A DNA stretch of 64,000 nt from Candidatus Velesiimonas alkalicola. GTDB lineage: Bacteria > Omnitrophota > Gorgyraeia > Velesiimonadales > Velesiimonadaceae. Shown here in pieces: positions 1,828 through 51,578 of the stretch. Below the pieces are notes generated by a model, which was given only the letters and a program-made list of their open reading frames with translations, did not search any database and was not told the DNA's origin. Numbering within the stretch: the first letter of the stretch is position 1; every line of letters starts with the position of its first letter. The stretch is from contig NDHX01000001.1 in the NCBI GenBank assembly GCA_013626165.1, positions 100,817 through 164,816 of the forward strand. The letters run 5' to 3'. Position numbers and translations under genes: made by a program.

Positions 1828-2418
1828 ATGACTGCAATCAAACTGCCACAGCCGGAGATAAAAAAGGGAAAATCTGTTGAAGAATGTTTTAGAAATAGAC
1901 GCTCCATAAGAGAATATAAAAATACGCCTCTTTCTTTGAAAGAAATATCTCAAATTTTATGGGCAGCAGATGGAAAAAATATTGAAGACTATGGAAGAAC
2001 CTCTCCTTCTGCGGGGGCAACATATCCGATAGAGATTTATATTGCTTGTGGGAATGTTTCCGACATATCTTCCGGTGTCTATCATTACAATATAGGTACA
2101 CATTCTCTTACACTCATAAAACAAGGAGATATTAGAAGCAGTTTAAGTGAATCTGCACTAAATCAGATAATGGTTCTTAAAGCACCTGCGACTATTATAA
2201 TTGCAGGCGTTTTTGAAAAAACCACTTCAAGATATGGTGAAAGAGGAAAAAGATATGTGTTTATGGAGGCAGGACACTGTGGTCAGAATATCCATCTTCA
2301 AGCAGAATCATTAGGACTTGGGACTGTTATGGTTGGTGCTTTTAACGATGCTTCTGTGAGGAAGGTTTTAGCAATTAAAGAAGATGTTTTTTATCTTTGC
2401 CCTGTTGGGGAAAAATAA
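1828..2418 (+). CDS. nitroreductase / SagB-type dehydrogenase family protein
   Basis: FRNRRSIREY N-terminal motif typical of the nitroreductase fold. Length 196 aa. Confidence 0.7.
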   Translation: MTAIKLPQPEIKKGKSVEECFRNRRSIREYKNTPLSLKEISQILWAADGKNIEDYGRTSPSAGATYPIEIYIACGNVSDISSGVYHYNIGTHSLTLIKQGDIRSSLSESALNQIMVLKAPATIIIAGVFEKTTSRYGERGKRYVFMEAGHCGQNIHLQAESLGLGTVMVGAFNDASVRKVLAIKEDVFYLCPVGEK

Positions 2419-2567
2419 AGGCTACCAGCAACCGGTGCCCGGAGATTGGGAAAAATTTAAGTCCATTATCCACCATTTAGTTCACAGTTCATTGTCTATT
2501 ATAATAAGCCCCATTGGATGTAAAGTTATCTGACGGGGTAAAAAAAGGAAAACCAACAAAATCTTTT

Positions 2568-2786
2568 TCAACAGGTGGTGTAATTATTAGTTTTTTTTAT
2601 ATCCTCCTTTTTTCTACGGTACTTCTCTATGGTTTTGCCACTTTTTTTATAATGCTGTAATCTCATTATTTCGACACTATCCTCTAACAATTCTTCTTTT
2701 TCTATTTTTTCTTTAACTGCATTTTTTATAAATCTTCCTATTTTTAATCTTTTTTTCACAGAAGTTTTTAATTTCTTCTGTGACAT
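2568..2786 (-). CDS. hypothetical small lysine-rich protein
   Basis: 72-aa ORF in a 630-bp gap between + strand genes. AT-rich, so it could be spurious. Confidence 0.2.
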   Translation of the reverse strand: MSQKKLKTSVKKRLKIGRFIKNAVKEKIEKEELLEDSVEIMRLQHYKKSGKTIEKYRRKKEDIKKTNNYTTC

Positions 2787-3048
2787 TCTTACTTATTCTT
2801 ATTGGATAATTTCTTATTCCTGTTGTCATATTTCCCCCTTGCTCTATATTCGCAGGTGTGTCACAATTGTATAATTTTGTCAAATTTTTGTATTAAAATT
2901 TATTCCCCTTTTTATGGGGTGCCTATCTTCCTATCTCTCCCATTGGGAAACAGAAAAACCGGTGGCATATGCTGCTCTTTTCTCTTATTCCCAATGTCAC
3001 ATTTAAGAAGATATATTTTCGGGTAAGAATTGGTTATAATAATAGCGG

Positions 3049-20454: not shown

Positions 20455-20646
20455 ATATGAATCCAGGGTCTTTTTTTATTACTGCTGTTTTATTCATAAT
20501 ACATACCTTGGTATTGGGTGTTCTTTCAGAAAAATATCTTGCAGGTAGAGTATATCCCGATATGAAAATCCCCGTTCAGGACTTGTTCTTGATGGTGTAG
20601 AACAAAAACAGCTTACCAGATTAAAATTACATTTAGGAGTATACTG

Positions 20647-20852
20647 AAATTCCGACATAAGGATGAAAAACTAACTCTTCCCCTTTTCTTAAAAGGGGTG
20701 GCAGACCGAAGGTCTGACGGGGTATTTAACCCCTTTCTTTAAAAGGAATACCTACAAAGCCATGGAGATATTGAATACCCCGTCTGCTACCGCAGACACC
20801 CCTTTACAAAAGGGGAATTAAATACTTGCTTAACCCTTATGTCGGAATTTCG
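20647..20852. repeat. 206-bp element closed by a perfect 17-bp inverted repeat (GAAATTCCGACATAAGG) and holding at least 6 internal GC-clamped hairpins
   Basis: Hairpins CCCCTTTTCTTAAAAGGGG, CAGACCgaaGGTCTG, GGGGTatttaACCCC, GTCTGCtaccGCAGAC and CCCCTTTacaAAAGGGG, between rpsI and tRNA-Thr. Confidence 0.55.
20719..20740 (+). terminator. rho-independent terminator-like hairpin (GGGGT-attta-ACCCC + TTTCTTT)
   Basis: Read directly. Lies downstream of rpsI, inside the palindromic element. Confidence 0.45.
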
Positions 20853-20991
20853 GTTAAGAATATATAGAATTATAACATATATTGTTTTGGTGGACCCTGT
20901 TGAACCTGCCTGCCTTAAGAGAGGGAATTTTCTCTAAACGGTATAAAGCAAAAAATTAAGACTAATTTTTGCCGATAAAAGCAGAACAGGT

Positions 20992-21064
20992 GCTGCTGTA
21001 GCTCAGTCGGCAGAGCACGTCCTTGGTAAGGACGGGGTCATGGGTTCAATTCCCATCAGCAGCT
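20992..21064 (+). tRNA. tRNA-Thr (anticodon GGT)
   Basis: Cloverleaf folds by hand: acceptor GCTGCTG/CAGCAGC, D arm GCTC..GAGC, anticodon stem CGTCC/GGACG with loop TTGGTAA, T arm ATGGG-TTCAATT-CCCAT. CCA is not encoded. Confidence 0.9.
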
Positions 21065-21148
21065 TTAAAAAAATATAAAAGAAAAAATACTTAAAGGCAA
21101 AAAGTAAAGTGACTGGTGCCTGATGCACTGGCAAACAGGAGGTAAAAA

Positions 21149-22351
21149 ATGGCAAAAGAAAAATTTCTCAGGACAAAACCGCATGTAAATGTAGGGACCA
21201 TAGGACATGTTGACCATGGAAAAACAACACTGACAAGTGCAATAACAAAAGTATTATCTAGCAAGGGATTGGCTCAGGCAAAGACATTTGAAGAAATAGA
21301 TAATGCGCCTGAGGAAAGAGAAAGAGGAGTAACAATAAATGTACACCATGCGGAATATCAAACACAGAACAGGCACTATGCACATGTGGACTGTCCAGGT
21401 CACGCAGACTATATAAAGAATATGGTTACAGGAGCGGCACAGATGGACGGAGCAGTATTAGTGGTAAGTGCAGTAGATGGTCCTATGCCGCAGACAAGAG
21501 AACACATACTTTTGGCAAGACAGGTGGGAGTTCCTGCAATGGTGGTGTTCTTAAACAAAACAGATGCAGTAGAAGATAAAGAATTAGTAGATTTAGTTGA
21601 AATGGAAGTGCGAGATTTATTAAGCAAATATGAGTTTCCTGGGGATAAGATACCGGTGGTAAGAGGAAGTGCATTAAATGCAATGAACTGTGGATGTAGC
21701 AAAGATGATTGTCCAAACTGCAAGTCCATACTGGAATTGATGTCAGCAGTAGATAGCCATATACCTGAGCCTGTAAGAATAACGGACAGGGCATTTTTAA
21801 TGTCCGTAGAAGATGTATTTAGCATAAGCGGCAGAGGAACAGTAGGAACAGGAAGAGTAGAAAGAGGAATAGTCAAAGTAGGAGAAGAAGTAGAAATAGT
21901 AGGGATACAGACAGAGAGCAGAAGGACAGTAGTAACAGGGGTAGAGATGTTCAGGAAGTTGTTAGACGAAGGAAGAGCAGGAGACAACATAGGGGTATTG
22001 TTAAGAGGGATAGAAAAAAAAGACTTAGAAAAAGGGATGGTCATATCGGCACCAAATACAATAACGCCACACACACAATTCAAGGCACAGGTATATGTAT
22101 TAACAAAAGAAGAAGGTGGAAGACACACACAATTTTTCAGCGGCTACAGGCCTCAGTTTTTCTTCAGGACAACAGATGTAACAGGAGTAATAACATTACC
22201 GCAAGGAACAGAAATGATAATGCCTGGCGACAATGTATCTGCAACAGTAGATCTGATAGTACCTGTGGCAATGGAAAAAGAGCAAAGATTTGCAATCCGC
22301 GAAGGAGGAAAGACAATAGGAGCAGGCGTGGTAACAGAGATAATAAAATAA
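21149..22351 (+). CDS. tuf: elongation factor Tu (copy 1, tufB-like position after tRNA-Thr)
   Basis: [23 protein letters not shown]. 400 aa. It differs from copy 2 by one residue. Confidence 0.95.
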
Positions 22352-22401
22352 CAGGAGATAGTAGGTGGGAGGTAGTAGGTAGGAAAGAAATAGGGGAAAG
22401 A

Positions 22402-22551
22402 ATGCAGGAGCAGATTATATTGGCTTGTGAAGTTTGTAAAAACAGAAATTATATATCTACCAAGAATAAAAAAAATATTCCGGATAGATTACAACATAAA
22501 AAATATTGTAGGATTTGTCGTAAACATACTGTTCATAAAGAAACCAAGTAG
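22402..22551 (+). CDS. rpmG: 50S ribosomal protein L33
   Basis: 49 aa, [41 protein letters not shown] (4 Cys). Below the 60-aa ORF-track cutoff, so found by hand. Confidence 0.85.
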
Positions 22552-22598
22552 GGTAGGACCGTCTTGCCCTGTATTTGCAAGACAGGCGCAGTGTTTAA

Positions 22599-22672
22599 AG
22601 GAGCGTCGGTTAATGGTAAACCACCGGTCTCCAAAACCGGAACTGCAGGTTCGATTCCTGTCGCTCCTGCCA
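22599..22672 (+). tRNA. tRNA-Trp (anticodon CCA)
   Basis: Acceptor AGGAGCG/CGCTCCT, anticodon stem CCGGT/ACCGG with loop CTCCAAA, T loop TTCGATT. 3' CCA is encoded. Confidence 0.88.
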
Positions 22673-22765
22673 TTCTGTAAAGTAAAAAACAAAGGGCAAT
22701 GAGAGTAAGTGACAATAGATTTTTTTATTTGTCACTTATTTATAATGTGTGGCAAGAGGATTGTA

Positions 22766-22948
22766 ATGAAAAAAATAGTCAATTTTATAGCAGAGGTAAA
22801 GGGCGAATTAAAAAAGGTTGGATGGTCAAATAAAAAAGAGTTGACATATTCAACAGGTGTTGTTACAATAATCTCTTTCTTTCTTGCTTTGATCATTGCA
22901 ATTGCAGATTGGTTTTTATCACATATAATAAGAATTATTATTCGTTGA
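22766..22948 (+). CDS. secE: preprotein translocase subunit SecE
   Basis: ATG after AGAGGA. FIAEVKGELKKVGW..KEL... followed by a single TM helix. Confidence 0.85.
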   Translation: MKKIVNFIAEVKGELKKVGWSNKKELTYSTGVVTIISFFLALIIAIADWFLSHIIRIIIR

Positions 22949-22957
22949 GGTAATTAA

Positions 22958-23530
22958 ATGACACAAAAATGGTATATAGTTCATACTCAGGCTAATACAG
23001 AAGAAAAGATTGAGAGGGAAATTAAAAGAGGCATAGAAGATGGAACCTTATCCGATTGTGTTTTTGATGTTATAGTTCCAAAAGAAAAGGTTCAAGAGGT
23101 AAAATCAGGAAAGAAGATAATAAAAGATCAAAAAATCTTTTTAGGTTATGTGCTTATTAAGATGGTTGACCTGTCTTTGCTTAAAAGTGAAGATGCGAGT
23201 TTGCGGAATATTGCACAAAGAGCGTTTCTGGCTGTAAGAAAGACATCAGGGGTCTCAAGTTTTATAAGTTCAGGTAAGAAGCCGGTTGCGATATCAGAAG
23301 AAGAGGTTGAAAAAATATTAAAAAAGACAGCAGAAACCAAAGAAAAGCCTACAATTAAACAGACCTTTTCGCAGGGTGAATCGGCAAGAATTAAGGAAGG
23401 TCCTTTTGAAAATTTTATGGGTACAATTGAGGAAGTCTATCCTGGTAAGGGAAGGTTGAAGGTTATGGTTGTAATATTTGGAAGGACAACCCCAGTTGAA
23501 CTGGAATATGGACAAGTGGAGAAAATATAA
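22958..23530 (+). CDS. nusG: transcription termination/antitermination factor NusG
   Basis: [14 protein letters not shown]-terminal domain. KOW C-terminus [20 protein letters not shown]. Confidence 0.9.
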
Positions 23531-23958
23531 TGGCAAAGAAAAAAATTACAGCACAGATCAAACTGCAGATACCAGCAGATGGAGCAAATCCAGCCCCACC
23601 TGTTGGTCCTGCACTTGGGCAGCATGGTGTAAATATTATGGAGTTTTGTAAAAGTTTTAATGCTGCCACAAAGGATAAGGGAGGAATGATTATTCCTGTT
23701 GTAATCTCAGTTTACGAAGATAAAAGTTTTACATTTATAATGAAAAGTCCCCCTTGTAGCGCTCTTTTAAAACAAGCCTGTGGACTTGCAAAGGGGTCCG
23801 GTCAACCCAACAAACAAAAGGTTGGCAAGATTACAAAATCACAGGTTAGAGAAATTGTAAAAATAAAAGCCAAAGATTTAAACGTATCTGATGAAGAGCA
23901 AACAATCCGTATTGTCGAAGGAACTGCAAGAAGTATGGGGATTGAGGTATCTGATTAA
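23530..23958 (+). CDS. rplK: 50S ribosomal protein L11
   Basis: [31 protein letters not shown]. Confidence 0.95.
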
Positions 23959-23961
23959 AGA

Positions 23962-24157
23962 AGGTGACTGGCATAAGAGGCAGGAGGTAGTAGGTAGTAG
24001 ATAGTAGGTAGGAGGTAGTAGGTAGTAGATAGTAGGTAGTAGGTAGGAGGTAGGATAAAAAATGGGGACTGGCGACTGGAACCCCGGGCACCAGGGTATC
24101 CTTCAGAACGGGGTTTGTATCTTCGGATACTTTCCGGGTGTGGCACTTCGGAGAACG
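23962..24157 (+). repeat. composite mosaic repeat: GGTGACTGG connector + (G[T/G]AG[G/A]TA)n heptamer array + GACTGG..GGCACCAG + module A (49-nt conserved hairpin block)
   Basis: Heptamers at 23983-24054. Module A cggggtttgtatcttcggatactttccgggtgtggcacttcggagaacg at 24109-24157 is identical to 46902-46950. Confidence 0.75.
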
Positions 24158-24188
24158 ACTAACAGTGAATGTTAACATAAAAACAGTG

Positions 24189-24887
24189 ATGAAAAAACAT
24201 AGTAAAAGATACGAAAAGATACTTTCTCAACTTCCGAAAGAAGAAAAAATTTGGAAGATAGCAGATGCGGTAAAGGTTTTAAAGGAATTACCACCTGTAA
24301 AATTTAATGAGACAGTGGCTCTTTCATTTAAGACGGACATAAATCCAAAACAGTCTGACCAGAATATAAGAGGAACGGTTGTTCTACCTAATGGCTTGGG
24401 CAGGAAGGTCAGGGTTGCGGTGTTTTGTAAGGGAGAGCATGAGAAGGCAGCAAAAGATGCAGGGGCAGATGTTGTAGGTGCAACAGACCTTGTAGAAAAG
24501 GTTGCTGGCGGATTTCTTGACTTTGATGTTGCAATTGCCACACCTGAAATGATGCGCGAAATGGGAAGGCTCGGTAAAGTGCTTGGTCCAAAAGGATTGA
24601 TGCCAAACCCAAAGGTAGGAACTGTTACAACAGATGTTGGAAAAGTGGTAAAAGAAGCAAAGGCCGGACGCGTTGAGTATCGTATGGATAAACAGGGCAA
24701 TATCCATGTGGCAGTGGGTAAGATTTCGTTTGAACCGAGTGCAATAGTTGAAAATGCTTCAACTGTTATAGAGTCGGTTTTTAAGGCAAGACCTGCTGCA
24801 TTAAAAGGACAATATATTAAAAGTATTCATATAGCAAAAACAATGGGCCCTGGTTTAAGGTTAGACATAAGTCAGTTCAAATTGTAA
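24189..24887 (+). CDS. rplA: 50S ribosomal protein L1
   Basis: MKKHSKRYEKI..., SDQNIRGTVVLPNGLGR. The upstream part of the listed ORF is read from repeat DNA. Confidence 0.9.
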   Translation: MKKHSKRYEKILSQLPKEEKIWKIADAVKVLKELPPVKFNETVALSFKTDINPKQSDQNIRGTVVLPNGLGRKVRVAVFCKGEHEKAAKDAGADVVGATDLVEKVAGGFLDFDVAIATPEMMREMGRLGKVLGPKGLMPNPKVGTVTTDVGKVVKEAKAGRVEYRMDKQGNIHVAVGKISFEPSAIVENASTVIESVFKARPAALKGQYIKSIHIAKTMGPGLRLDISQFKL

Positions 24888-24925
24888 GAGTCTGTGAGCA
24901 CAACCCCAATAGAACAGGTTCACTG

Positions 24926-25026
24926 GTGACAGGTAAAAGCCGTATATCGTATTCTGTATATCGTGAAAGAAACAGAGCACAGAATACGGACGACGGGTGA
25001 TGGAATACGGTATACGAAATACAAGT
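24926..25026 (+). promoter_or_regulatory. rplJ leader carrying a 10-bp inverted repeat (CGTATTCTGT / ACAGAATACG) and a GGAATACGGTATACGAAATACA motif
   Basis: Lies where L10(L12)4 autoregulatory leaders are usually found. The motif is shared with the rpsK upstream region. Confidence 0.35.
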
Positions 25027-25038
25027 ATGAGAAGTGGT

Positions 25039-25563
25039 ATGATAAGGTTTGATAAATCTTCTATGTTAGATGAGGTAAAGAGTTCTATTAAGGATGGGCA
25101 GGCTATATTTATTTTTAGGTATAAAGGGCTTCGCACATCAGAGCTTGAAGAATTAAGAAAAACTGTAAGGTTAAGTGGGAAAGTATTTGTATGCAAAAAT
25201 TCTATCCTTAAGGTTGCATTGAAAGATATAAGCCTTGAAAAAGCCGTTCAATTTGTAGAAGGTCCATCAGCAATTGCAGTTTCAACAACAGACCCTTGTG
25301 TTTTATCAAAAGATATTATTAAGTTTGCTTCAAATCATCCTGCGTGTGTTGTTTTGGGTGGAGTGCTTGGGAAGGAAGTACTTACGGCATCTGTTGTCAA
25401 GCAATTGGCAGGCCTGCCATCAAGACAAGAGATTCTTGGACAAGTGGCATGGACAGCGCAGTCTGCTGTTTATCACTTTATCTGGACTTTAAATGGAATA
25501 ATTTGTAAGTTTCTTTATGTAGTAGAACAAATTAAAAACATACCAGACCGTAAGGCAGAATAA
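25039..25563 (+). CDS. rplJ: 50S ribosomal protein L10
   Basis: [33 protein letters not shown] at 25039 is preceded by a purine-rich SD; 25027 is an alternative. Confidence 0.85.
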
Positions 25564-25580
25564 TAAAAGAAGGAGATGAT

Positions 25581-25991
25581 ATGTCAGAAATAAAGGTAGA
25601 AACACAGTCTGCATCTACAAAGGTAAATGAAATAGTAGAGGCAGTAGGTCAATTAAGTGTCCTTGAACTTTCATCGCTTGTGAAGGCTATGGAAGAAAAA
25701 TTTGGTGTCAGTGCCACTATGCCGGCTATAACATCTGCGGCAGGGCCATCTGCTGAGGCAAGGCCTTCTGCTGAGGAAAAAACAGCATTTGATGTTGTTC
25801 TTACGGATGCGGGCTCTCAAAAGATAGCGGTTATAAAAGAGGTAAGGGCTATCACAAGTCTTGGTTTGAAGGAGGCAAAAGACCTTGTTGAGGGAGCGCC
25901 TAAACCGGTAAAAACAGGCGTTTCAAAAGAAGAAGCAGAGAAGATAAAGAAACAGATTGAGGCAACAGGTGCAAAGGTAGAATTAAAATAA
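25581..25991 (+). CDS. rplL: 50S ribosomal protein L7/L12
   Basis: [19 protein letters not shown]... and C-terminal [23 protein letters not shown]... Confidence 0.93.
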
Positions 25992-26010
25992 AAGATTGAA
26001 AGGATATAAA

Positions 26011-29000
26011 ATGCAGGAATTAAAAAGTTTTGCAAAAATACCAGAGATTATGGATTTGCCTCACTTCTTAGATATACAGACCCAGCCTTATGAGGAATTT
26101 CTTCAAGGCTTTGTTCCCAAAAACAAGAGAAAGTCAGTGGGACTGCAAGAGGTTTTTGAAGAGTTTTTTCCTATGGAACTTCCGGACAAGGGGGTCAGGC
26201 TTGAGTTTTTAAGATATTCTCTTGAAAAACCGAGCCATACAATAGAGCAATGTTTGGCCGGAGGTTTTACATATGCAAGTCCTTTGAGGGCCCGTCTGAG
26301 GTTAAGAACAGGCAAAAGAGAAGTTGTAGAAGAGGATGTATATATATGCGACATTCCCTTGATGATGCCTACGGGTTCATTTATTATAAATGGTGATGAG
26401 AGAGTGGTGGTAAGCCAGCTTCACCGTTCTTCAGGTGTTTGTTTTGAAGAGTCGCCCCATCCGTCAGGGAAGATGTTGTATATTGCCCGTATTATACCGG
26501 ACAAAGGTTCCTGGATGGAGTTTGAGTTTGATATAAACGATTTGATGTATGTTCACCTTGATAGAAGAAAAAAATTTTATGTAACAACCCTGTTAAGAGC
26601 ACTTGGTTTTGAAACAGATGCCGATATTCTTAAAGAATTTTATCCGATTGAAGTGTTACACCTGAAAGACACAGTTATATCAAGTCTTGTCGGAAGAGTG
26701 TGTGCGAAAGATATTATTCATAAAAAAACGCAAGAAAAGATTGTTTCAACAGGTGAGTCTATCACAGTTGAGATGGTTTCACAATTAGAAGATGCAGGTC
26801 CTGTGTTTTCAGTATTTGACCTTTCATCTAAAAGACAGCTCTATAGCACTTTGGCAAGTGATCATCTTCATACCAAAGAAGATGCTCTTGTTGAGATATA
26901 CCATAAGATGCGTCCTATGGAGCCATCCACAGTTGATGGAGCAAGTGATATGTTAAAAAATAATTTTTTCAACAAGAAAAGATACCATCTTGGGAAGGTT
27001 GGCAGATTTATACTGAACAGAAAACTTAATATGAATGTTCCTTTTGATAATACAGCGCTTGATAAGGAAACAATAATCAATGTTATTAAATATCTTTTAA
27101 GTCTCAGAAACGGAGAGGGAAAAGTTGATGACATTGATCATCTCGGCAACAGAAGAGTAAAAACTGTTTGTGAGCTTGTTCAAAATCAGTTCAGGATTGG
27201 TTGCGCCAGACTTGAAAGAAATGTAAAAGATCGTATGGCGGCATATAGTAATGAAATGCTTCTTCCACACAATCTTGTTAATTCAAAAATAGTGTCTTCG
27301 GTAATAAAAGACTTTTTTGCAAGGAGTCAATTATGTCAGTTTATGGATCAGATAAATCTGCTCGCAGAACTAACACATAAAAGACGGTTAAGCGCGCTTG
27401 GCCCTGGTGGGCTTTCCAGAGAAAGGGCTGGTTTTCAGGTGCGTGATGTTCACCATTCGCACTATGGAAGGATATGTCCTATTGAAACACCGGAGGGTTC
27501 TAATGTCGGACTTATAGCATCGTTGGCAACATATGCGAGGATAAATGAGTTTGGTTTTATTCAGACCCCTTACAGGAAGGTGGTAGATGGGAAAGTAACC
27601 GGAAAGATAGAATATCTTTCAGCAGATATAGAGGACCAATATGTAATAGCTCAGGCAAACTCAAAAATAGATGAAGGCGGAAAATTTCTTGACGAAAGGG
27701 TTCTTTGTAGGGACAAGGGAAATTTTTCGCTTGTAGATCCAGAAGATATATCCTATATGGATGTTTCTCCGAAACAGATTGTAAGCGTTGCGGCAAGTCT
27801 TACTCCGTTTTTTGAACACAATGATGCGAACAGAGCGCTGATGGGTTCCAATATGCAAAGGCAGGCTGTTCCTCTTTTGCTTCCCGAAAGAGCGCTTCTT
27901 TCAACAGGTATTGAAGGCAGGATTGCAAAAGATGGTGGTGCTGTTGTAATTGCAAAAAAATCAGGTAAAGCAACAAGGGTTGAATCCGACAGGATAGTTA
28001 TTGACAATGAACAGTACACTTTAAAAAAGTTTATCCGTTCAAATTCTTCTACCTGTATTAATCAAAGACCTCTGGTTAAGGTAGGTGATAATGTCAAGGC
28101 AGGGGATATTATTGCAGATGGACCTGCTACAGACAATGGCGAACTTGCACTTGGCAGGAATATACTTGTTGCATTTATGCCCTGGTACGGTTATAACTTT
28201 GAGGATGCAATCGTAATAAGCAGAAAACTTGTCTCTGATGATTTATTGACCTCTATTCATATTGAAGAGTTTGAGGTTGAGGCGAGAGAAACCAGACTTG
28301 GTAACGAAGAAATAACAAGAGATATTCCAAATGTAGCAGAGGAAGCATTAAAAAATCTTGATGAAGAGGGAATTGTCCACATAGGTGCCGAGGTATCGGC
28401 TGGCGATGTTATTGTTGGAAAAATTACACCAAAAGGTGAAACAGAACTAACACCTGAAGAAAAACTGTTAAGGGCGATATTTGGGGAAAAGGCAAAAGAT
28501 GTAAAAGACTCATCACTTATTGTTCCACCCGGTGTTGAGGGGACAGTCGTAGATATAAAGGTGTTCTCAAGAAAGGATATATTAAAAGGTAAAAAGAAAA
28601 AGACATTAAAGATTGAGGAGATGCAGGCAATAGAATCTATCAGAAAGCACTATGAGACACAGATACAGCATCTTGTACTTGAAAAAAATAAAAAAGTTGC
28701 CTCCGTACTTTTGGGTAAAAAATTAACACAGAGCATAATAGATGAAGAAACAGGACAGATACTTATATCGTCGGGTAATTCCATTACAAAATCAGATTTG
28801 AAAAAAATTGAGACCGAATCCTGCGATGCATCAGATATACATATAAATAATGAAAAGGATTCTGCGGAACTTTATAAAATGGTGAAAATATTTGATGACC
28901 AGATATTAAGTTTAAGTTCGGAACAAAAAAGACAGACAGATAGAATAAAAAGGGGTGATGAACTCCCGACGGGTGTATTAAAAAGGGTTATCATATATAT

Positions 29001-29712
29001 TGCGTCAAAAAAGAAAGTATCAGTTGGTGATAAATTAGCAGGTCGGCATGGAAACAAAGGTGTTATAGCAAAGATACTGCCTGAAGAAGATATGCCGTTT
29101 ACAGCAGATGGAACACCTATTGAGATGATACTTAATCCGTTGGGTGTGCCATCTCGTATGAATGTTGGCCAGATATTAGAAACCCAGCTTGGTTGGGCAG
29201 CAAAAGCGCTTGGCATTAGATTTATAAGTCCTATATTTGATGGGGCAAAAGAAGAAGAAATTCGTGGAGAACTTAAAAAAGCAGGACTTCCAGAAGATGG
29301 GGTGATTACATTATATGATGGAAAGACAGGACAGGCATTTGTACAAAAAATAAGTGTTGGCTACCTGTATATGATGAAACTTATACATCTTGTTGATGAT
29401 AAGATACACGCAAGAGCAATAGGTCCTTATTCTCTTATTACACAGCAGCCGTTGGGTGGGAAGGCACAGTTTGGTGGACAGAGATTAGGAGAAATGGAGG
29501 TATGGGCGCTTGAGGCATATGGTGCGGCACATACATTACAAGAATTTCTAACAATAAAGAGCGATGATATTCAGGGAAGGACAAAAGCTTACGAGGCAAT
29601 TGTAAAAGGTGAACAGGTATTACAGCCTACAACGCCGGAGTCATTTAATGTTCTTATAAAAGAACTCCAGAGCCTTGGATTAGATATAAAAATAGAAAAA
29701 AAGAAGAAATAA
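26011..29712 (+). CDS. rpoB: DNA-directed RNA polymerase subunit beta
   Basis: ATG at 26011; the TTG at 25996 sits too close to the rplL stop. Hallmark segments [33 protein letters not shown] and NMQRQAVPL. Confidence 0.95.
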   Translation: [1233 protein letters not shown]

Positions 29713-29751
29713 AGTAAGCGGCAACTGGTACTCTGGTGCACAAGGAATATT

Positions 29752-32700
29752 ATGGATACAGTAAATATTTTTGATAGTATTACTATAAAGATTGCATCCC
29801 CTGAAACTATAAGGGCATGGTCTTACGGACAGGTGAAGAAGCCCGAGACATTGAATTACAGAACATTAAGATCAGAAAAAGACGGACTTTTTTGTGAAAA
29901 GATATTCGGTCCTACAAAAGACTGGGAATGTTATTGCGGAAAATATAAAAGAATAAAAAATAAAGGGATAGTATGCGACAGGTGTGGTGTGGAGATTACA
30001 CTTTCAAGAGTCCGAAGAGAGCGGATGGGACATATAGAACTTGCAGCTCCTGTTTCACATATCTGGTTTTTTAAGTCTCTTCCGTCAAGGATAGGGATAC
30101 TTCTTGATTTAACACTAAAAGAACTTGAGAAGGTTCTTTATTATGAAGAATACATTGTTATAGACCCTAAAAGCACCCCGTTAAAGGAAAAACAGCTTCT
30201 TAATGATGAGCAATATCAGGAAGCCATTATAAGGTATGGTGCAGAAAACTTTGATGCAGGGATTGGTGCAGAGGCTGTACAACATTTTTTAAGAAGGGTT
30301 AATTTTGATAAGATTTCATTAAAGTATAAAAAACAGATTAAGGGGTCAAAATCTGATATTACAAAACAAAAAATTGCAAAAGTATTAAATATTTTAGATA
30401 CCCTTAAAAATTCCGGAAATAAGCCTGAATGGATGATATTAACTGTTTTACCGGTAATTCCCCCGGACCTAAGGCCGCTTGTTCCTTTAGACGGTGGAAG
30501 GTTTGCAACAAGTGACCTAAATGACCTGTATAGAAGGGTTATAAACAGAAACAACAGGTTGAAAAAGCTTATAGAACTTTCTGCGCCAGATATTATTATA
30601 AGAAATGAGAAGAGGATGCTTCAGGAGGCAGTTGATGCATTATTTGAAAATGGCAAGCATGGTAAGCCGGTTCTTACCGCCGGGAATAGACCCCTGAAAT
30701 CCCTTTCAGATATGTTAAAGGGAAAACAGGGAAGATTCAGACAGAATCTTCTGGGAAAAAGGACCGATTATTCCGGACGATCTGTTATTATCATAGGTCC
30801 TGAACTTAAACTGCACCAGTGTGGTCTGCCCAAAAAAATGGCGCTTGAACTTTTTGAACCATTTATTATACAGAAGTTAAGAGAAAAGGGATATGTTCAT
30901 ACAATAAGAAGTGCAAGAAAACTGGTGGATAAAAAAAAGACAGAGGTTTGGGATATACTTGATGAAGTAATCAAGGACCACCCTGTTATACTGAACAGGG
31001 CACCCACACTGCACAGACTTGGAATACAGGCTTTTGAGCCTGTTCTCATAGAAGGCAATGCAATAAAAGTTCATCCATTTGTGTGTGCGGCATTTAACGC
31101 TGACTTTGACGGTGACCAGATGGCGGTTCATGTCCCTCTTTCGATAGAGGCTCAGGTTGAGACAAGACTTCTTATGCTTGCTCCAAATAATTTATTTGCA
31201 CCGTCCAGTGGCCGCCCCATAGTTGCGCCCACACAAGATACAGTTATCGGGTGTTATTTTTTAACAATACCAAAATTGGGCTGTCGAGGAGAAGGAAAAA
31301 TATTTGCAAGTACAGACGAAGCAATGATAGCGTATTATGATGAAGAAGTAGAACTTCATGCAGTTTGTAAGGTAATGTTAAACGGCAATTTGATAGATAC
31401 AACAGTCGGAAGAATCTTATTCAATGATATACTGCCCAAAGGTATGCCCTTTGTCAATGAACCAATGGATAGAAAGGTTCTTGGTTCTCTTATAATTAAA
31501 TCTTATAAACTTTTTGGGGCTGAAAAAACAGTTCAGATGCTTGATGAATTAAAAAAAATAGGATTTGAAATGTCAACACACGCAGGGATCTCTATTTCTA
31601 CATCCAGCCTCTCTATTCCTTCCAAGAAAGAAGAGGTAGTGAAGAAAGCACAAAAAGAAGTAAAAGAAGCAGAAAGCAAATACAAGGCAGGTATCATTAC
31701 AGAAGGCGAAAGAAACAATAAGGTTATTGATATATGGACAAGGGTAACACAGGAAATCCAGGACCTTATATTTGAATCCTGGGATCTGTTTAACCCGGTT
31801 CGCATGATGGCTGATTCAGGAGCAAGAGGAAACCGTCAGCAGATAAGGCAGCTTGCAGGTATGAGGGGGTTGATGGCAAAGCCCTCGGGTGAAATTATAG
31901 AAATACCCATTATTGCAAATTTCAGAGAAGGACTTACAGTTCTTGAATATTTTATCTCTACACACGGGGCAAGAAAAGGGCTTGCAGACACTGCGCTTAA
32001 AACATCGGACGCCGGTTATCTTACCCGTAGGCTTGTTGATGTTGCGCAGGATGTAATTATAACAGAAGAAGATTGTGGTACCTTAAGCGGAATACTTATA
32101 AGTGCCATAACAGAGGGTGAAGATGTAGTTGTAAGTTTGAAGGAAAGAATTGTCGGAAGGATTGCACTTGATAATATTGTAGATGTTATAACGGACCAGA
32201 TTATTGTATCCGCAGGTGAAGAGATAACAGATGAAAAGACTGATAAAATTGAAGAGGTTGGGATTGAAAAGATTCGTATAAGAAGTGTTCTAACCTGTCA
32301 GACAAGATTGGGTGTATGCCAAAAATGTTATGGTAGAAACCTTGCTACGCAGAGGATATCTGAACTTGGGGATGCAGTGGGCATCATTGCTGCTCAATCA
32401 ATTGGAGAACCCGGCACACAGCTTACGATGCGTACCTTCCATATCGGTGGAACAGCATTCGGTATAGCAAAACAAAGTGGTATAAAGGTGAGAAATTCAG
32501 GAACTGTTAGATATCATAACCTTAAAACAGTTTCTATAAAAGGTGGCCTTTTTCGTGTAATAAACAGGATTGGTGAGATATCTATAAATGATGAAGTGGG
32601 CAGGGAATTTGTCCGATACCGTATACCGTTTGGCGCAACTGTATTTGTTCAGGACGAGGGTAAAATAGAAAAAGCAGAGGAACTTACCCAGTGGGATCCG

Positions 32701-33720
32701 TACACAATCTCAATAGTTTCAGAAGTATCAGGGCGTGTCCAGTATATGGATATAAGATCCGGTGTTACAATGCGTGAAGAATTAGACCCTGCCACAGGTA
32801 TCACAGGCCGTATTATTACAGAACACAAGGGAGATTATTATCCACAGATATTGATAAAAGATGAAAAAAATGAGATTCTTGCAACATATCCTGTCCCAAC
32901 AGGTGCTCATATAATGGTAGATGAAAAACAGGAAGTTGAAAGTGGCGATGTGATAGCAAAGACACCAAGAAAGATAACAAAGACAAAAGATATTACAGGT
33001 GGGCTTCCGAGGGTTGCAGAACTTTTTGAAGCAAGAAAGCCCAAGAACCCTGCGATAATAAGTGACATCTCAGGTGTTGTTGATTTTGGTCCTGCAAAAA
33101 GAGGACACAGAAGAATCATTGTAAAGAATCCTCAAACACAGGATGAAAGAGAATACCTTGTCCCGTCAGGGAAGCATATCCTTGTGTATAAAGGTGACAA
33201 TATAACAGCGGGACAGCAATTAACAGATGGCCCTGTTGTTTTACAGGATATATTAAAAACACTTGGAGATAAGGCGTTGCAAGAATATCTTGTTAATGAA
33301 ATACAGGAAGTATACCGTCTTCAGGGTGTTCGTATAAATGATAAACATATAGAAGTTATTGTTCGTCAGATGATGAGAAGAGTAAGCATTACAGACCCCG
33401 GTAATTCGGATTTTCAGGAAGGAATGCATGTTGATAAATTTAAGTTTAATGATGTGGTTACTGCATTAAAAAAGAAGAATAAAAATTTGCCTAAGGCCAT
33501 GCCAACACTTCTCGGTGTAACAAAAGCATCTTTAAGCACGGAAAGCTTTATCTCTGCTGCAAGTTTTCAAGAAACGACGCGTGTTCTTACAGAGGCGGCC
33601 TTAGCCGGTAAAAAAGATTTTCTCCTTGGATTAAAAGAAAATGTTATTATGGGGCATCTAATCCCAGCAGGGACAGGGTATCACTCACATCATGAATTTG
33701 AGATAGAAAGGGAAAAATAG
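29752..33720 (+). CDS. rpoC: DNA-directed RNA polymerase subunit beta'
   Basis: Zn finger CYCGKY...[25 protein letters not shown], and so on. The TAG stop is the first unit of the heptamer array. Confidence 0.95.
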
Positions 33721-33985
33721 TAGGTAGGAGGTAGTAGGTAGGAGGTAGGAGGTAGGAGGTAGGAGGTAGGAGGTAGGAGGTAGTAGGTAGTAGGTAGGAG
33801 GTAGGAGGTAGTAGGTAGGAGGTAGGGAAAAAAATGGTGACGGATGACTGGTGACAAGCGACTGGAACCCGGGCACCAGTGCACCAGAGCACCCTCTGGG
33901 TGGGGGTAAAACATAATCCCCCGACCCATCCTTTGGATGGGTGCCCCGCCCCTCCTTTTGTAAAGGAGGAGGGGTGGATTATGGT
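33718..33985 (+). repeat. composite mosaic repeat: heptamer array (33718-33826) + GGTGAC../GGCACCAG connector + module B (~70-nt three-hairpin element, 33912-33983)
   Basis: Module B core cataatcccccgacccatcctttggatgggtgccccgccc.tccttttgtaaag...ggggtggattat is shared with 41711-41783. Confidence 0.75.
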
Positions 33986-34023
33986 TTGAAAAAATTTGTG
34001 TCTAATAAAAAAGAAAGAATAAT

Positions 34024-34407
34024 ATGCCAACTATAAGTCAATTGATAAGATTTGGAAGAGCAAGAATTAAAAAGAAGACAAAATCACCTGCATTAAATAA
34101 ATGCCCACAGAGAAGAGGGGTTTGTCTGCAGGTAAGAACTATGACACCCAAGAAGCCAAACTCTGCTTTGCGCAAGATTACCAGAGTCAGGCTTACCAAT
34201 GGTATAGAGGTTACTGCATATATACCCGGTGAAGGACACAACCTTCAAGAACACTCTATTGTATTGGTTCGTGGAGGCAGAGTAAAGGATCTTCCGGGCG
34301 TCCGATATCATACTGTAAGGGGAACACTTGACACAGCGGGTGTTGAAAACAGAAAAAAGAGCCGTTCTAAATATGGGACAAAAAGACCGAAGGAACAGGC
34401 TAAATAA
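34024..34407 (+). CDS. rpsL: 30S ribosomal protein S12
   Basis: [10 protein letters not shown]....[25 protein letters not shown]. Confidence 0.95.
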
Positions 34408-34418
34408 CGGAGCAGGGA

Positions 34419-34886
34419 ATGAGAAGAGGTAAAATACAAAAAAGGAAGTTATTACCGGATCCTAAATATAACGATTTACTGGTAAGCAAGTTTATAAATA
34501 TACTTATCTTAAAAGGTAAAAAATCAAAAGCTGAAAAAATAGTTTATAATGCGATGGAAGAGGTTTCAAAAAAGATTAATAAAGAGCCATTAGAAATTTT
34601 AAGTAAGGCGGTTAACAATGTCCGACCTCTTTTGGAGGTAAAAGCCCGACGGATAGGCGGTGCCACCTATCAGGTTCCTATTGAGGTTAACGAAGAAAGA
34701 GGAAGGGCTATTGCACTTCGTTGGATAAGAGATTTTGCCAGAGTTAAAAAAGGGATGCCAATGGAAAAAAAACTTGGGGGCGAAATTTTAGATGCATATA
34801 AAGGCGAAGGTGCTTCTATGAAAAAAAGGGCAGATACACATAAGATGGCAGAATCAAACAAGGCATTTGCACATTTTAGATTTTGA
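34419..34886 (+). CDS. rpsG: 30S ribosomal protein S7
   Basis: LPDPKYNDLLVSKFIN.L...GKKS.AEKIVY... Confidence 0.93.
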   Translation: MRRGKIQKRKLLPDPKYNDLLVSKFINILILKGKKSKAEKIVYNAMEEVSKKINKEPLEILSKAVNNVRPLLEVKARRIGGATYQVPIEVNEERGRAIALRWIRDFARVKKGMPMEKKLGGEILDAYKGEGASMKKRADTHKMAESNKAFAHFRF

Positions 34887-34891
34887 AATTG

Positions 34892-35017
34892 TAAATACTC
34901 AGTCAACTGTGTTACCTGAAGGCACAAAGGCGCAAGGTGACAAAGGTACAAAGCATAAGAAAAGAATCTAAAAGGACAGTCCACTTTGTGCCTGTGTGCC
35001 TTAAGTGCCTCTGTGCC
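34892..35017 (+). repeat. 'AATACTCAGTCAACTGTGTTACCTGAAGGCACA' repeat plus GGCACA / TGTGCC inverted iterations
   Basis: The first 43 nt are near-identical to 18332-18375. This is followed by ggcacaaaggcgcaaggtgacaaaggtacaaagc ... ctttgtgcctgtgtgccttaagtgcctctgtgcc. Confidence 0.55.
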
Positions 35018-35142
35018 TAAAATATGAACTGAATTTAGTGAATATTTACGGTTTTCCTTTATTTTAAGATTCTAAACTTGCTGAACTAATGATGGAACAA
35101 AATATCTTATTAGAATTTAACAAAAAGGAATATAAAAATATT

Positions 35143-37218
35143 ATGGAAGTAAAATATACTTTACAAAAATTACGCAATGTAGGTATTATTGCACATATTG
35201 ATGCAGGGAAAACAACTACCACAGAGAGAATTCTCTATCATGCTGGAACCATTGATAGAATGGGAAATGTTGATGATGGAACAACACAGACAGACTGGAT
35301 GGTTCAGGAAAGGGAAAGAGGTATAACTATTACAAGTGCCTGTACCACCAGTTTTTGGAAAGACTGCAGAATAAACATCATAGATACACCGGGGCATATT
35401 GATTTTACCGTAGAGGTAGAAAGAAGTTTAAGGGTTCTTGACGGTGCGGTTGTGATATTCTGTGCTGTAGGAGGAGTTGAGTCTCAATCTGAAACAGTAT
35501 GGAGACAGGCAGATAGGTATCATGTTCCAAGGATTGCTTTTATTAATAAAATGGACAGGATAGAAGCAGATTTTTTTGGAACCCTGAAACAGATACAACA
35601 AAGACTTGGCGCAAATGCAGCAGCGGTTGAGATACCCATAGGGGTTGGACAAAATTTAGAAGGTGTTATAGACCTTATTAAAATGAAATCTCTTATCTAT
35701 GATATTAAAGACATTACAGGTAGATTTAAGGTTGGTTCAGTTTCACCTGACCTTTTAGAAATGGCAAAACTGTATCGCGCAAAACTTATTGAGTCTGTCG
35801 CAGAGACCGATAAAAATATTATGGAAAAGTTTTCGCACGATCAGGAAATAAAAGAAGGAGAACTATCATCTGCCATAAGAAGACAGACGATAGCAGGAAA
35901 GTTTGTTCCGGTTCTTTGCGGTTCATCACTTAAAAATATAGGTGTTCAACCTATTTTAGATGCAGTTGTAGACTGGTTGCCAAGCCCGGTTGATGTCCCC
36001 CCTGTTCAGGGGATTGTTCAGGGTAAAGATGTAATAGAACAAAGGAAAGCATCGGATGATGAGTATTTTTCTGCACTTGCATTTAAGATAATGATAGATC
36101 CATATGTTGGAAAACTCACATTTTTAAGGGTCTATTCAGGCATACTAAAATCAGGTTCCTACATATATAACGTAAGCAGGGACAAAAAAGAAAGAATTGG
36201 AAAACTTCTTAAAATGCATGCAAACAGGCAGGAAATAATTGAAGTGGTAAAAACTGGAGATATTGCTGCTGCTGTAGGACTAAGAGAAACAAAAACGGGT
36301 GATACCATATGTGATGAACAACATCCTGTAATCCTTGAGTCCATGCATTTGCCACAGCCTGTTATATCCCTTGCAATTGAACCTTTGACAAGACAGGATC
36401 AGGATAAACTTTCTCTTGCACTTTCAAGATTGCAGGACGAAGACCCTTCGTTTTGTGTTTCTTATAATGAAGAGACGGCACAGACGCTTATTTTGGGTTT
36501 TGGAGAATTGCATCTTGAAATAATTGTTGACAGATTGAAAAGAGAATTCAATGTTCAGACACAGGTTGGAAAACCGCATGTTGCATATAAAGAAACATTG
36601 ATTAAACCTGTAAGACAGGAAGGAAAGTTTGTGCAGCAGAGCGGCGGGCGTGGACAGTATGGGCATGTCGTATTTGAGATAGAGCCCATAGAAAGAGGTT
36701 CAGGAATAGTGTTTGAAAGTGCGCTACGCGGAACAAGTATACCCAGAGAATATGTTCCCTCTATAGAACAGGGAGTAATAGAATCCGCACAGACAGGACC
36801 TTTGGGAGGATTTCCTGTTGTAGATGTAAAGGTAGTGCTTATAGATGGCTCATACCATGAAGTAGATTCTTCAACATTCGCATTCAAGATGGCAGGCTCT
36901 ATCGGATTTAGCGCAGCACTTAGATCGGGGGGTTCAATGCTCCTTGAGCCTATTATGGATGTGGAGGTTGTGGTTCCTGAGGAATATTTAGGCGATGTAA
37001 TTGCTGATATGGGAGCTCGCAGGGCAAAGATAGAACAACTTTCACAGAGAGGCAATGTCCGTGTTATAAGAGGATTTATTCCTCTTTCAGAGCTTTTTGG
37101 ATATGCAACTGCTGTTCGTTCTGTAAGTCAGGGAAGGGCATCATATGTAATGCAGCCAGCATATTATGCAGAGGTTCCAAAAAATATAAAAGAAAAAATA
37201 CTTAAAGGCAAAAAGTAA
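35143..37218 (+). CDS. fusA: elongation factor G
   Basis: Start at MEVKYTLQKLRNVGIIAHIDAGKTTTTERILY, aligned to the EF-G N-terminus. The listed ORF starts 18 codons earlier. Confidence 0.93.
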   Translation: MEVKYTLQKLRNVGIIAHIDAGKTTTTERILYHAGTIDRMGNVDDGTTQTDWMVQERERGITITSACTTSFWKDCRINIIDTPGHIDFTVEVERSLRVLDGAVVIFCAVGGVESQSETVWRQADRYHVPRIAFINKMDRIEADFFGTLKQIQQRLGANAAAVEIPIGVGQNLEGVIDLIKMKSLIYDIKDITGRFKVGSVSPDLLEMAKLYRAKLIESVAETDKNIMEKFSHDQEIKEGELSSAIRRQTIAGKFVPVLCGSSLKNIGVQPILDAVVDWLPSPVDVPPVQGIVQGKDVIEQRKASDDEYFSALAFKIMIDPYVGKLTFLRVYSGILKSGSYIYNVSRDKKERIGKLLKMHANRQEIIEVVKTGDIAAAVGLRETKTGDTICDEQHPVILESMHLPQPVISLAIEPLTRQDQDKLSLALSRLQDEDPSFCVSYNEETAQTLILGFGELHLEIIVDRLKREFNVQTQVGKPHVAYKETLIKPVRQEGKFVQQSGGRGQYGHVVFEIEPIERGSGIVFESALRGTSIPREYVPSIEQGVIESAQTGPLGGFPVVDVKVVLIDGSYHEVDSSTFAFKMAGSIGFSAALRSGGSMLLEPIMDVEVVVPEEYLGDVIADMGARRAKIEQLSQRGNVRVIRGFIPLSELFGYATAVRSVSQGRASYVMQPAYYAEVPKNIKEKILKGKK

Positions 37219-37259
37219 AGTGACTGGTGCCTGATGCACTGGCAAACAGGAGGTAAAAA

Positions 37260-38462
37260 ATGGCAAAAGAAAAATTTCTCAGGACAAAACCGCATGTAAA
37301 TGTAGGGACCATAGGACATGTTGACCATGGAAAAACAACACTGACAAGTGCAATAACAAAAGTATTATCTAGCAAGGGATTGGCTCAGGCAAAGACATTT
37401 GAAGAAATAGATAATGCGCCTGAGGAAAGAGAAAGAGGAGTAACAATAAATGTACACCATGCGGAATATCAAACACAGAACAGGCACTATGCACATGTGG
37501 ACTGTCCAGGTCACGCAGACTATATAAAGAATATGGTTACAGGAGCGGCACAGATGGACGGAGCAGTATTAGTGGTAAGTGCAGTAGATGGTCCTATGCC
37601 GCAGACAAGAGAACACATACTTTTGGCAAGACAGGTGGGAGTTCCTGCAATGGTGGTGTTCTTAAACAAAACAGATGCAGTAGAAGATAAAGAATTAGTA
37701 GATTTAGTTGAAATGGAAGTGCGAGATTTATTAAGCAAATATGAGTTTCCTGGGGATAAGATACCGGTGGTAAGAGGAAGTGCATTAAATGCAATGAACT
37801 GTGGATGTAGCAAAGATGATTGTCCAAACTGCAAGTCCATACTGGAATTGATGTCAGCAGTAGATAGCCATATACCTGAGCCTGTAAGAATAACGGACAG
37901 GGCATTTTTAATGTCCGTAGAAGATGTATTTAGCATAAGCGGCAGAGGAACAGTAGGAACAGGAAGAGTAGAAAGAGGAATAGTCAAAGTAGGAGAAGAA
38001 GTAGAAATAGTAGGGATACAGACAGAGAGCAGAAGGACAGTAGTAACAGGGGTAGAGATGTTCAGGAAGTTGTTAGACGAAGGAAGAGCAGGAGACAACA
38101 TAGGGGTATTGTTAAGAGGGATAGAAAAAAAAGACTTAGAAAAAGGGATGGTCATATCGGCACCAAATACAATAACGCCACACACACAATTCAAGGCACA
38201 GGTATATGTATTAACAAAAGAAGAAGGTGGAAGACACACACAATTTTTCAGCGGCTACAGGCCTCAGTTTTTCTTCAGGACAACAGATGTAACAGGAGTA
38301 ATAACATTACCGCAAGGAACAGAAATGATAATGCCTGGCGACAATGTATCTGTAACAGTAGATCTGATAGTACCTGTGGCAATGGAAAAAGAGCAAAGAT
38401 TTGCAATCCGCGAAGGAGGAAAGACAATAGGAGCAGGCGTGGTAACAGAGATAATAAAATAA
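37260..38462 (+). CDS. tuf: elongation factor Tu (copy 2, str-operon position)
   Basis: Identical to copy 1 except A vs V at one position (gca vs gta). Confidence 0.95.
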
Positions 38463-38467
38463 CAGGA

Positions 38468-38549
38468 GATAGTAGGTGGGAGGTAGTAGGTAGGAAAGAA
38501 ATATTTTTTCCTATCTACTACCTACTATATCCTACCTCCTATATTTTTT
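38468..38549 (+). terminator. intrinsic terminator built from a heptamer array and its inverted copy, followed by TTTTTT
   Basis: gatagtaggtgggaggtagtaggtagg ...loop... cctatctactacctactatatcctacctcctata then tttttt. This is the only place in the window where the heptamer occurs as its reverse complement. Confidence 0.6.
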
Positions 38550-38560
38550 GGGGGAAAGAG

Positions 38561-38863
38561 ATGGCTCAAAGGATAAGGATAAAACTAAAAGCATATGACT
38601 CAAGACTTTTAGACCAATCTACGCAGGAAATTGTAAATACTGTTAAAAGAACAGGTGCAAAGATTTCAGGACCTATTCCGTTACCTACTAAAAAAGAGGT
38701 AACAACTGTTCTGCGTTCTCCTCATGTAGATAAAAAATCAAGGGAACAGTTTATAATAAGAACACATAAAAGGATACTTGATATACTTGAGTCAACACCT
38801 AAAACAATAGATGCATTAAAAAAACTTGATCTGCCAGCTGGTGTAGATGTTGAGATAAAGTAG
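38561..38863 (+). CDS. rpsJ: 30S ribosomal protein S10
   Basis: [11 protein letters not shown]...LD.S...IV.T.KRTGA...GPIPLPT. Confidence 0.95.
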
Positions 38864-38864
38864 G

Positions 38865-39012
38865 GTCTGCTGAAAAACTCATCAGACCTTAAAATCGGTG
38901 TAATCTTTCCAAAATCTGTGTAATCAGGGCTTACTGGATGTGTTAATATAACACAGTAAGCCCAGTCTTTAAGAGCACCAGAGCACCAGAGCACCAGTGC
39001 ACCAGTTATAGA
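38865..39012 (+). repeat. spacer with two hairpins (GGTCTG..CAGACC; GGGCTTACTG..CAGTAAGCCC) and a (GAGCACCA)x4 octamer array
   Basis: Read directly. The octamers are the reverse complement of the TGGTGCTC family. Confidence 0.6.
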
Positions 39013-41511: not shown

Positions 41512-41518
41512 AAGAAAC

Positions 41519-51576: not shown

Positions 51577-51578
51577 AA

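Follow-up and report, generated by a model that had tools for sequence, protein, structure and literature searches.

Pairs of tuf genes are a textbook case of concerted evolution, in which the identity of the copies normally hides both the donor and the reach of an event. Abdulkarim and Hughes are said to have described the concerted evolution of tufA and tufB in 1996, and Lathe and Bork reportedly found in 2001 that such evolution of tuf has been long-lasting and recurrent in bacteria. E. coli and Salmonella each carry two full-length EF-Tu genes, which recombination keeps near identical: one lies downstream of fusA in the str operon and the other between tRNA-Thr(GGU) and secE-nusG. The two Salmonella copies lie 762 kb from each other in inverted orientation (Paulsson et al. 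2017, PMC5485169). Wang and Chen (2018, PMC6053082) present recurrent concerted evolution of tuf as well documented across bacteria. A contiguous tufB-secE-rpoBC-str-S10 order, with rpmG heading the secE operon, has been inferred for the ancestor of the Proteobacteria (2019, PMC6735719; Brandis 2021, PMC8046335).

The locus described here lies in a 64,000-nt stretch of DNA, the window, from Candidatus Velesiimonas alkalicola (contig NDHX01000001.1). ORF listing, a tRNA search and NCBIfam scans gave the order rplM, rpsI, tRNA-Thr(GGT), tuf1, rpmG, tRNA-Trp, secE, nusG, rplKAJL, rpoB, rpoC, rpsL, rpsG, fusA, tuf2, rpsJ. As in E. coli and Salmonella, one EF-Tu gene follows fusA and the other stands between tRNA-Thr and secE-nusG, here within one 17-kb stretch, and both are full-length (about 703 bits each, TIGR00485). 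The tuf2 product matches the public protein 'elongation factor Tu [bacterium Unc6]' exactly; the next-nearest EF-Tu sequences come from Omnitrophota MAGs. Rfam at its gathering threshold returned two tRNAs and nothing else between 17000 and 42000, and a promoter consensus scan gave a background level of matches. The features on which the argument depends are as follows.

20992..21064, + strand: tRNA-Thr (anticodon GGT; ARAGORN; Rfam tRNA, 70.6 bits), the conserved neighbour upstream of the tufB-type copy
21068..22392, + strand: repeat copy 1, the proposed recipient (fusA relic, leader, tuf1 and half terminator), identical to 37179-38503 except at 22242; repeat family D5
21068..21107, + strand: non-coding relic of the fusA 3' end (translated as KNIKEKILKGKK and a stop), with an in-frame TAA ahead at 21066-21068 and no ORF covering it
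21108..21148, + strand: copied 41-nt fusA-tuf spacer, identical to 37219-37259, with an AGGAGG Shine-Dalgarno sequence at 21137-21142
21149..22351, + strand: tuf1, EF-Tu of 400 aa with Ala365 (NCBIfam TIGR00485, 702.7 bits)
22352..22392, + strand: copied ascending arm and loop of the tuf2 terminator hairpin, with no complementary arm on the 3' side and no stable structure
22402..22551, + strand: rpmG (L33), from reading of the sequence; the L33 Pfam is found on the orthologues in contigs L019, L101 and L118, and the translated L019 rpmG region matches 22404-22550
22599-22672: tRNA-Trp, between rpmG and secE
35089..37218, + strand: fusA (EF-G; TIGR00484, 983.9 bits), the last 40 nt inside the repeat
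37179..38503, + strand: repeat copy 2, the proposed donor, 1,325 nt by ungapped comparison; Logan contig DRR093102_234038 is exactly the same interval at 100% identity
37260..38462, + strand: tuf2, EF-Tu with Val365 (TIGR00485)
38463..38549, + strand: putative intrinsic terminator of tuf2 (RNA fold), a long hairpin of heptamer-type repeats with a T-run after it
38561..38863, + strand: rpsJ (S10; NF001861, 161.6 bits), the first gene past the tuf2 terminator

The same tRNA-Thr precedes tuf in contigs of relatives (L106, L118, L101 and L103), and all four tRNAs (Thr-Tyr-Gly-Thr) are present upstream of tuf in L020, L101, L103 and L106. From rpsI to tRNA-Thr the window has 537 nt of non-coding sequence (20455-20991) with several short G/C palindromes (GGGGTATTTAACCCC, CCCCTTTTCTTAAAAGGGG, CCCCTTTACAAAAGGGG). 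Relatives carry tRNA-Thr(TGT)-Tyr-Gly in that place, and such tRNAs are absent throughout the window. Position 20720 is a common break point of Logan contigs from three runs, which suggests a repeated element there.

Ungapped comparison of the two loci, at an offset of 16,111 nt, found 21068-22392 and 37179-38503 to be the same 1,325 nt with a single mismatch. The copies are direct repeats on the same strand, 16.1 kb apart, and the flanks just beyond the block are unrelated between the loci. A 1.3-kb repeat this close to perfect cannot have arisen by chance; at the settings used, it was the longest repeat reported by the repeat finder, heptamer arrays and a few short dispersed intergenic elements aside. 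The block consists of the last 40 nt of fusA, a leader of 41 nt that carries the Shine-Dalgarno sequence, tuf itself (1,203 nt) and 41 nt downstream, so that identity reaches 81 nt 5' and 41 nt 3' of the tuf coding sequence. It spans nearly the whole interval from tRNA-Thr to rpmG, with 3 nt remaining beside the tRNA and 9 nt beside rpmG; those 9 nt (22393-22401) are the rpmG ribosome-binding site GGGGAAAGA, which begins directly at the repeat end.

An earlier note on this DNA had proposed a tuf duplication or conversion tract of about 1.3 kb, and the pairwise nucleotide alignment bears this out, placing the tract ends at 21068/22392 and 37179/38503. The sole difference between the copies, C at 22242 against T at 38353, is the C/T change that had been noted; it falls on the second base of EF-Tu codon 365, giving GCA (Ala) in tuf1 and GTA (Val) in tuf2. 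Some details needed correction. The shared fusA tail had been described as nine codons and a stop, whereas it comprises 12 codons and a stop, or 40 nt. The 30-mer aaagaaaaaatacttaaaggcaaaaagtaa was correctly placed in copy 2 (37189-37218) but 7 nt too low in copy 1, where it occupies 21078-21107 rather than 21071-21100. The common 3' flank is indeed identical, at a length of 41 nt (22352-22392 and 38463-38503) instead of 40.

The reach of the repeat into flanking sequence provides a means of determining which locus was copied. The shared tail starts with the third base of a Pro codon and continues as KNIKEKILKGKK and a stop. At locus 2 this is the C-terminus of EF-G. At locus 1 the homologous frame reads ...QQL, stop, KNIKEKILKGKK, stop, so the relic lies behind an in-frame stop and is non-coding. 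The EF-G proteins of relatives end in homologous tails (...PKTVKEKILEGKKK in L019, ...PKNIAEKIVSK in the P0113 organism and ...PKNRADEFIRKIRGI in the Ga0256826 organism, each ended by a stop), and different spacers follow them; the tail is therefore native to EF-G.

The 3' end of the block tells a parallel story. Downstream of tuf2, RNA folding predicted a hairpin of -43.3 kcal/mol (z -5.5) that none of 200 shuffled sequences equalled in stability, whereas the equivalent stretch after tuf1 reached only -8.0 kcal/mol (z -0.7). The apical loop of the hairpin is ATA at 38501-38503 and the repeat ends on its last base, 38503, so that locus 1 has the ascending arm and the loop but lacks the descending arm. 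All of the inverted repeats I1-I15 reported by the repeat finder involve 38502-38551. The stem-loop is followed immediately by TATATTTTTT, giving the stable stem and U-run expected of a Rho-independent terminator in the folding model; a simple terminator consensus scan, whose matches were also at background level, did not list this long hairpin. Two other accounts of the right-hand end were discarded. By inspection, the locus-1 sequence is not what a slippage deletion between the two copies of ATATTTTTT in the tuf2 terminator would leave. A resumption of homology past the missing hairpin arm, suggested by GGGGAAAGA ahead of both the rpmG and the rpsJ start codons, is not significant, as the motif occurs six times in the window.

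Because both flanks make functional sense at the fusA-tuf locus only, that locus is the donor, and the sequences give an unambiguous polarity of copying from fusA-tuf in the str operon to the tRNA-Thr locus. The scrap of fusA and the half terminator are thus a rare record of polarity between a str operon and a tRNA-linked tuf locus. The earlier note had suggested that copy 1 was created or homogenised from the fusA-tuf locus while leaving the direction open, and the relic, the hairpin and the relatives together settle it.

We compared relatives for tuf number and for the position of the tract ends. They carry two near-identical copies in the same contexts, and the shared tract corresponds approximately to the coding sequence. 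In the Ga0256826 organism (a JGI metagenome), one contig ends fusA-spacer-tuf and another reads tRNA-Thr-Tyr-Gly-Thr-spacer-tuf; identity between the two loci begins only 3 nt ahead of the ATG, at the very position where a third contig starts. The P0113 organism shows identity from the ATG to 10 nt past the stop, where its contigs break, and its two tuf contexts are 99.4% identical. The 3' half of its tRNA-Thr is the same as that in the window and is followed by an unrelated 29-nt spacer before tuf. The tufA and tufB genes of E. coli K-12 have 13 differences, and their identity is strictly that of the coding sequence, with unrelated flanks at its ends. A fusA relic upstream of the tRNA-linked tuf is absent in both relatives and in E. 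coli, and on these comparisons the flank carry-over appears to be derived and specific to the lineage of the window.

The nearest relative, L019 (EF-Tu 90% identical in amino acids), is known from one 3.6-kb contig only, Ga0484004_012529 of JGI metagenome 3300045482, which reads fusA-tuf-rpmG. This is probably a chimeric path through the repeat and not a different gene order, and the age of the event is therefore loosely bounded. Among the matches listed, an EF-Tu search of genome contigs returned at least 80 loci from unrelated phyla at 68-73% identity and no close relative. A metagenome scan with a lineage-specific RpoB fragment, taking 10-kb flanks to cover both tuf loci, gave no confirmed relative. 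The long Omnitrophota contigs P0102, P0107 and P0087 each show one tuf context per organism. Across L112-L121 (the P0113 organism), L013, L019 and L108, every pairing of upstream (fusA or tRNA-Thr) and downstream (rpsJ or rpmG) flanks occurs around identical tuf; some of these public contigs must therefore be chimeric paths through the repeat. Some contigs of the P0113 organism also have clustered SNP patches, with 7 changes at tuf nt 803-855 and 19 at nt 140-374, a mosaic typical of recombination. In L019, positions 2325-3652 hold tRNA-Trp followed by an HTH gene and an ORF in place of secE-nusG, which looks like an island inserted beside the tRNA; sequence reading alone suggests a candidate DNA methyltransferase for that ORF.

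We consider it probable that, in this lineage, the tRNA-Thr/rpmG locus received a copy of a 1,325-bp block of fusA-tuf2 through a non-homologous join on the left, with conversion between the copies later on. Besides tuf and its leader, the copied block would have comprised the fusA tail and the terminator's ascending arm and loop. Homologous conversion stops where homology stops, and the left junction therefore needs a non-homologous or microhomology join. The right junction could be a join of the same kind, or could mark the limit of a pre-existing similarity between heptamer arrays; its position at the hairpin apex would fit polymerase stalling or hairpin processing. Three routes can be envisaged. 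A break at tuf1, resected up to its two essential neighbours, may have been repaired by template switching; an unequal crossover between tuf1 and tuf2 may have given a tandem duplication, resolved by an illegitimate deletion running from the tRNA trailer into the first fusA copy; or the block may have entered a locus from which tuf had already been lost. Since locus 1 keeps none of its ancestral flanking sequence, it does not distinguish among the three routes. After the event, the longer homology would have allowed RecA-type gene conversion between direct repeats to maintain identity.

Other readings of the block were weighed against this one. The copied block resembles a tuf expression unit, running from fusA tail and leader through to the terminator. 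It is conceivable, though unlikely, that heptamer hairpins act as hot spots for breaks and template switches that drive segmental copying and rearrangement in this genome or, with much less likelihood, that the block was copied through a processed transcript. On either reading the event would amount to more than ordinary tuf recombination that happened to run past its usual limits. We think it quite unlikely that an ancestor had lost its tRNA-linked tuf, leaving tRNA-Thr abutting rpmG, and that the block was re-duplicated into this empty site. The block does fill the whole interval from tRNA-Thr to the rpmG ribosome-binding site with no ancestral tuf1 flank remaining, and bacteria commonly lose the tufB-type copy (PMC8046335), but the relatives keep their tRNA-linked copy and the insertion would have had to strike the exact ancestral tufB position by chance, with no homology to guide it.

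A purely homologous history, in which an ancient tuf duplication already held the fusA tail and downstream flank and conversion has maintained them since, is very unlikely. Conversion can maintain flanks once they are shared, and PMC6053082 describes long concerted evolution of tuf pairs in many phyla. However, the two relatives with the same loci, and E. coli, lack both shared flanks and a fusA relic, and it would be unparsimonious for a perfect non-coding relic to have been kept since an ancient duplication in one lineage alone. Our preferred reading remains a block copied through a non-homologous join.

As the source is a metagenome-assembled genome, the junctions were sought in independent assemblies. 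An assembler or gap-filler could have pasted fusA-tuf2 into the tuf1 locus, or collapsed and re-expanded the repeat, so that the flanks are unreal. Public assemblies do contain false joins across tuf repeats (fusA-tuf-NNN-rpmG in scaffold L013), one relative, the P0113 organism, has all four flank combinations on deposit, and the Ala365 variant occurs in no other assembly. Two assemblies from other samples (BBPD01013651 and BBPE01027318) nevertheless read rplM-rpsI-tRNA-Thr and then 42 nt into the block, covering the fusA tail. The Logan contig from run DRR093102 is exactly 37179-38503, which fits a collapsed repeat branching at both ends, and it starts just where a real second context would make it start. 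Logan contigs leading into rpmG begin 29-30 nt before the end of the block, and BBPG01002242 spans 22393 to 38497. All four junction types are thereby supported by sequence from assemblies other than the window, and an assembler cannot create a junction whose k-mers are missing from the reads; we regard an artefact as highly improbable. The reverse direction, in which EF-G acquired a new tail when sequence 3' of tRNA-Thr replaced the end of fusA, has next to no chance of being right: identity by itself carries no direction, but this reading is already contradicted by the alignment of the tail with the EF-G C-termini of relatives despite their different downstream spacers, by a hairpin that is complete at the fusA-tuf locus only, and by the stop codon ahead of the tail at locus 1.

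The single difference between the copies deserves separate comment. An exact-protein look-up found neither the Ala365 EF-Tu nor the exact L33 protein on record in public assemblies. Every other assembly carries T at 22242, including the rpmG-linked contig L014, and position 365 is M, L, F, V or I but never A among 98 aligned relatives. The difference would therefore seem to be private to the assembly of the window, or an error, and the copies look 100% identical in other samples.

Compared with the window, strains have 4-9 differing sites in the 3.1-3.3 kb upstream of the block (0.1-0.3%) and none in the block. As the junction predates the split of these strains, independent evolution predicts a few inter-copy differences; about 3.6 are expected and 0 or 1 is seen, in a gene that is highly constrained and from k-mer contigs that are unphased. 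A synonymous G>T change (Ser300, 22048/38159) appears both in the rpmG-linked L014 and in the rpsJ-linked L002, from the samples of a second study, the two contigs being from different samples and unphased paths through a collapsed k-mer repeat. These data are no more than suggestive of ordinary RecA-type conversion keeping the copies identical after the event. Three Logan contigs from different runs (L002, L004 and L005) start within the shared leader at 37235 (= 21124), 25 nt ahead of the tuf ATG. This hints at a polymorphism at 37234/21123 or at a second version of the boundary carried by some populations.

Tandem heptamer arrays (GGTAGTA / GGTAGGA / GATAGTA) follow many of the ribosomal and RNA-polymerase genes in the window, usually continuing into an A-run and a second heptamer family (TGGTGAC, then GCACCAG). 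Dispersed intergenic repeats adjoin them, upstream of rpsL, rplA and genes further downstream.

23975-24062, 33716-33826, 41517-41644, 42181-42215, 46683-46770, 51575-51603 and 54876-54932, and also 38972-39007 and 63762-63804: heptamer arrays
33908-33965 with 41707-41764, 23977-24113 with 46688-46824, and 24101-24157 with 46894-46950: dispersed intergenic repeats, 91-98% identical

Among the arrays reported by the repeat finder, the one after tuf2 alone pairs with a complementary arm. Array length varies by strain, the rplK-rplA spacer of L012 and L011 exceeding that of the window by 93-127 nt, and L019 has heptamers of other types (GATAGGG, ACTATAA) in its fusA-tuf and tuf-rpmG spacers. The 58-nt dispersed element has G/C-rich palindromic parts (CCCATCCTTTGGATGGG).

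The EF-Tu proteins themselves have a four-cysteine motif, C-x-C-x5-C-x2-C, at residues 181-192 (21689-21724 and 37800-37835), where E. coli has no cysteines. Every one of the most frequent variants of this segment among related 400-aa EF-Tu matches contains C-x-C...C-x-x-C, as do 6 of 80 EF-Tu loci of other phyla among the matches listed (Binatus, Aquificota and others). The motif may be a metal-binding knuckle.

Several consequences would follow from the copying. The two tuf genes likely share one translation-initiation region, and a non-homologous step of this kind can reset a tuf copy together with that region. With no terminator of its own, tuf1 should be read through into, or co-transcribed with, rpmG-tRNA-Trp-secE-nusG, while tuf2 would end in a hairpin that is predicted to be a strong terminator ahead of the S10 operon. 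Direct 1.3-kb repeats would also make the 16.1-kb unit prone to amplification. For metagenomics, the practical effect of exact 1.3-kb direct repeats on either side of 14.8 kb of essential genes is that assemblies break or are mis-joined there. Public data contain chimeric contigs of the orders fusA-tuf-rpmG and tRNA-Thr-tuf-rpsJ, and the gene order of MAGs around tuf needs to be read with care.

Compared with known systems, the pair is in most respects an ordinary concertedly evolving one. Its paralogues are 99.9% identical, against 64-83% nucleotide identity to orthologues, a disparity that we take as the signature of concerted evolution. They occupy two conserved contexts that recur in the relatives and in E. 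coli. Both properties agree with the pattern in the accessible text of Wang and Chen (2018, PMC6053082), where paralogues are far closer than orthologues and each copy keeps its conserved context; the phyla named for tuf in that text exclude Omnitrophota-like lineages, and it is silent on flank carry-over. Homology bounded by the coding sequence, as seen in E. coli and very nearly in the two relatives, does not hold in the window. This overrun is a deviation from the usual pattern and does not argue against a concertedly evolving tuf pair.

The gene order of the window is contiguous, with rpmG at the head of the secE operon, like the proposed ancestral order (PMC6735719, PMC8046335). Unlike the thrU-tyrU-glyT-thrT-tufB operon, the window has only tRNA-Thr(GGT) of the four tRNA genes and has rplM-rpsI upstream. 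Its copies are direct repeats 16.1 kb apart, unlike the inverted and distant pair of Salmonella, and they differ by 0 or 1 base over a tract that includes 40 nt of fusA, unlike the 13 differences within coding sequence alone in E. coli K-12. Microhomology-mediated template switching, or tandem duplication followed by deletion, are general mechanisms of templated insertion, and the locus resembles a templated insertion in that a second locus is replaced by donor sequence whose end points are non-homologous, one of them at a hairpin apex. The likeness is a mechanistic analogy only, since the ancestral recipient sequence is lost and with it any diagnostic microhomology. We found no report in the searchable literature of tuf conversion carrying fusA sequence. 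Concerted evolution of tuf is already known and the current understanding of it is unchanged; relative to the described pairs, the capture of flanks that reveals the donor and an illegitimate step is a modest twist, one that would not surprise a specialist.
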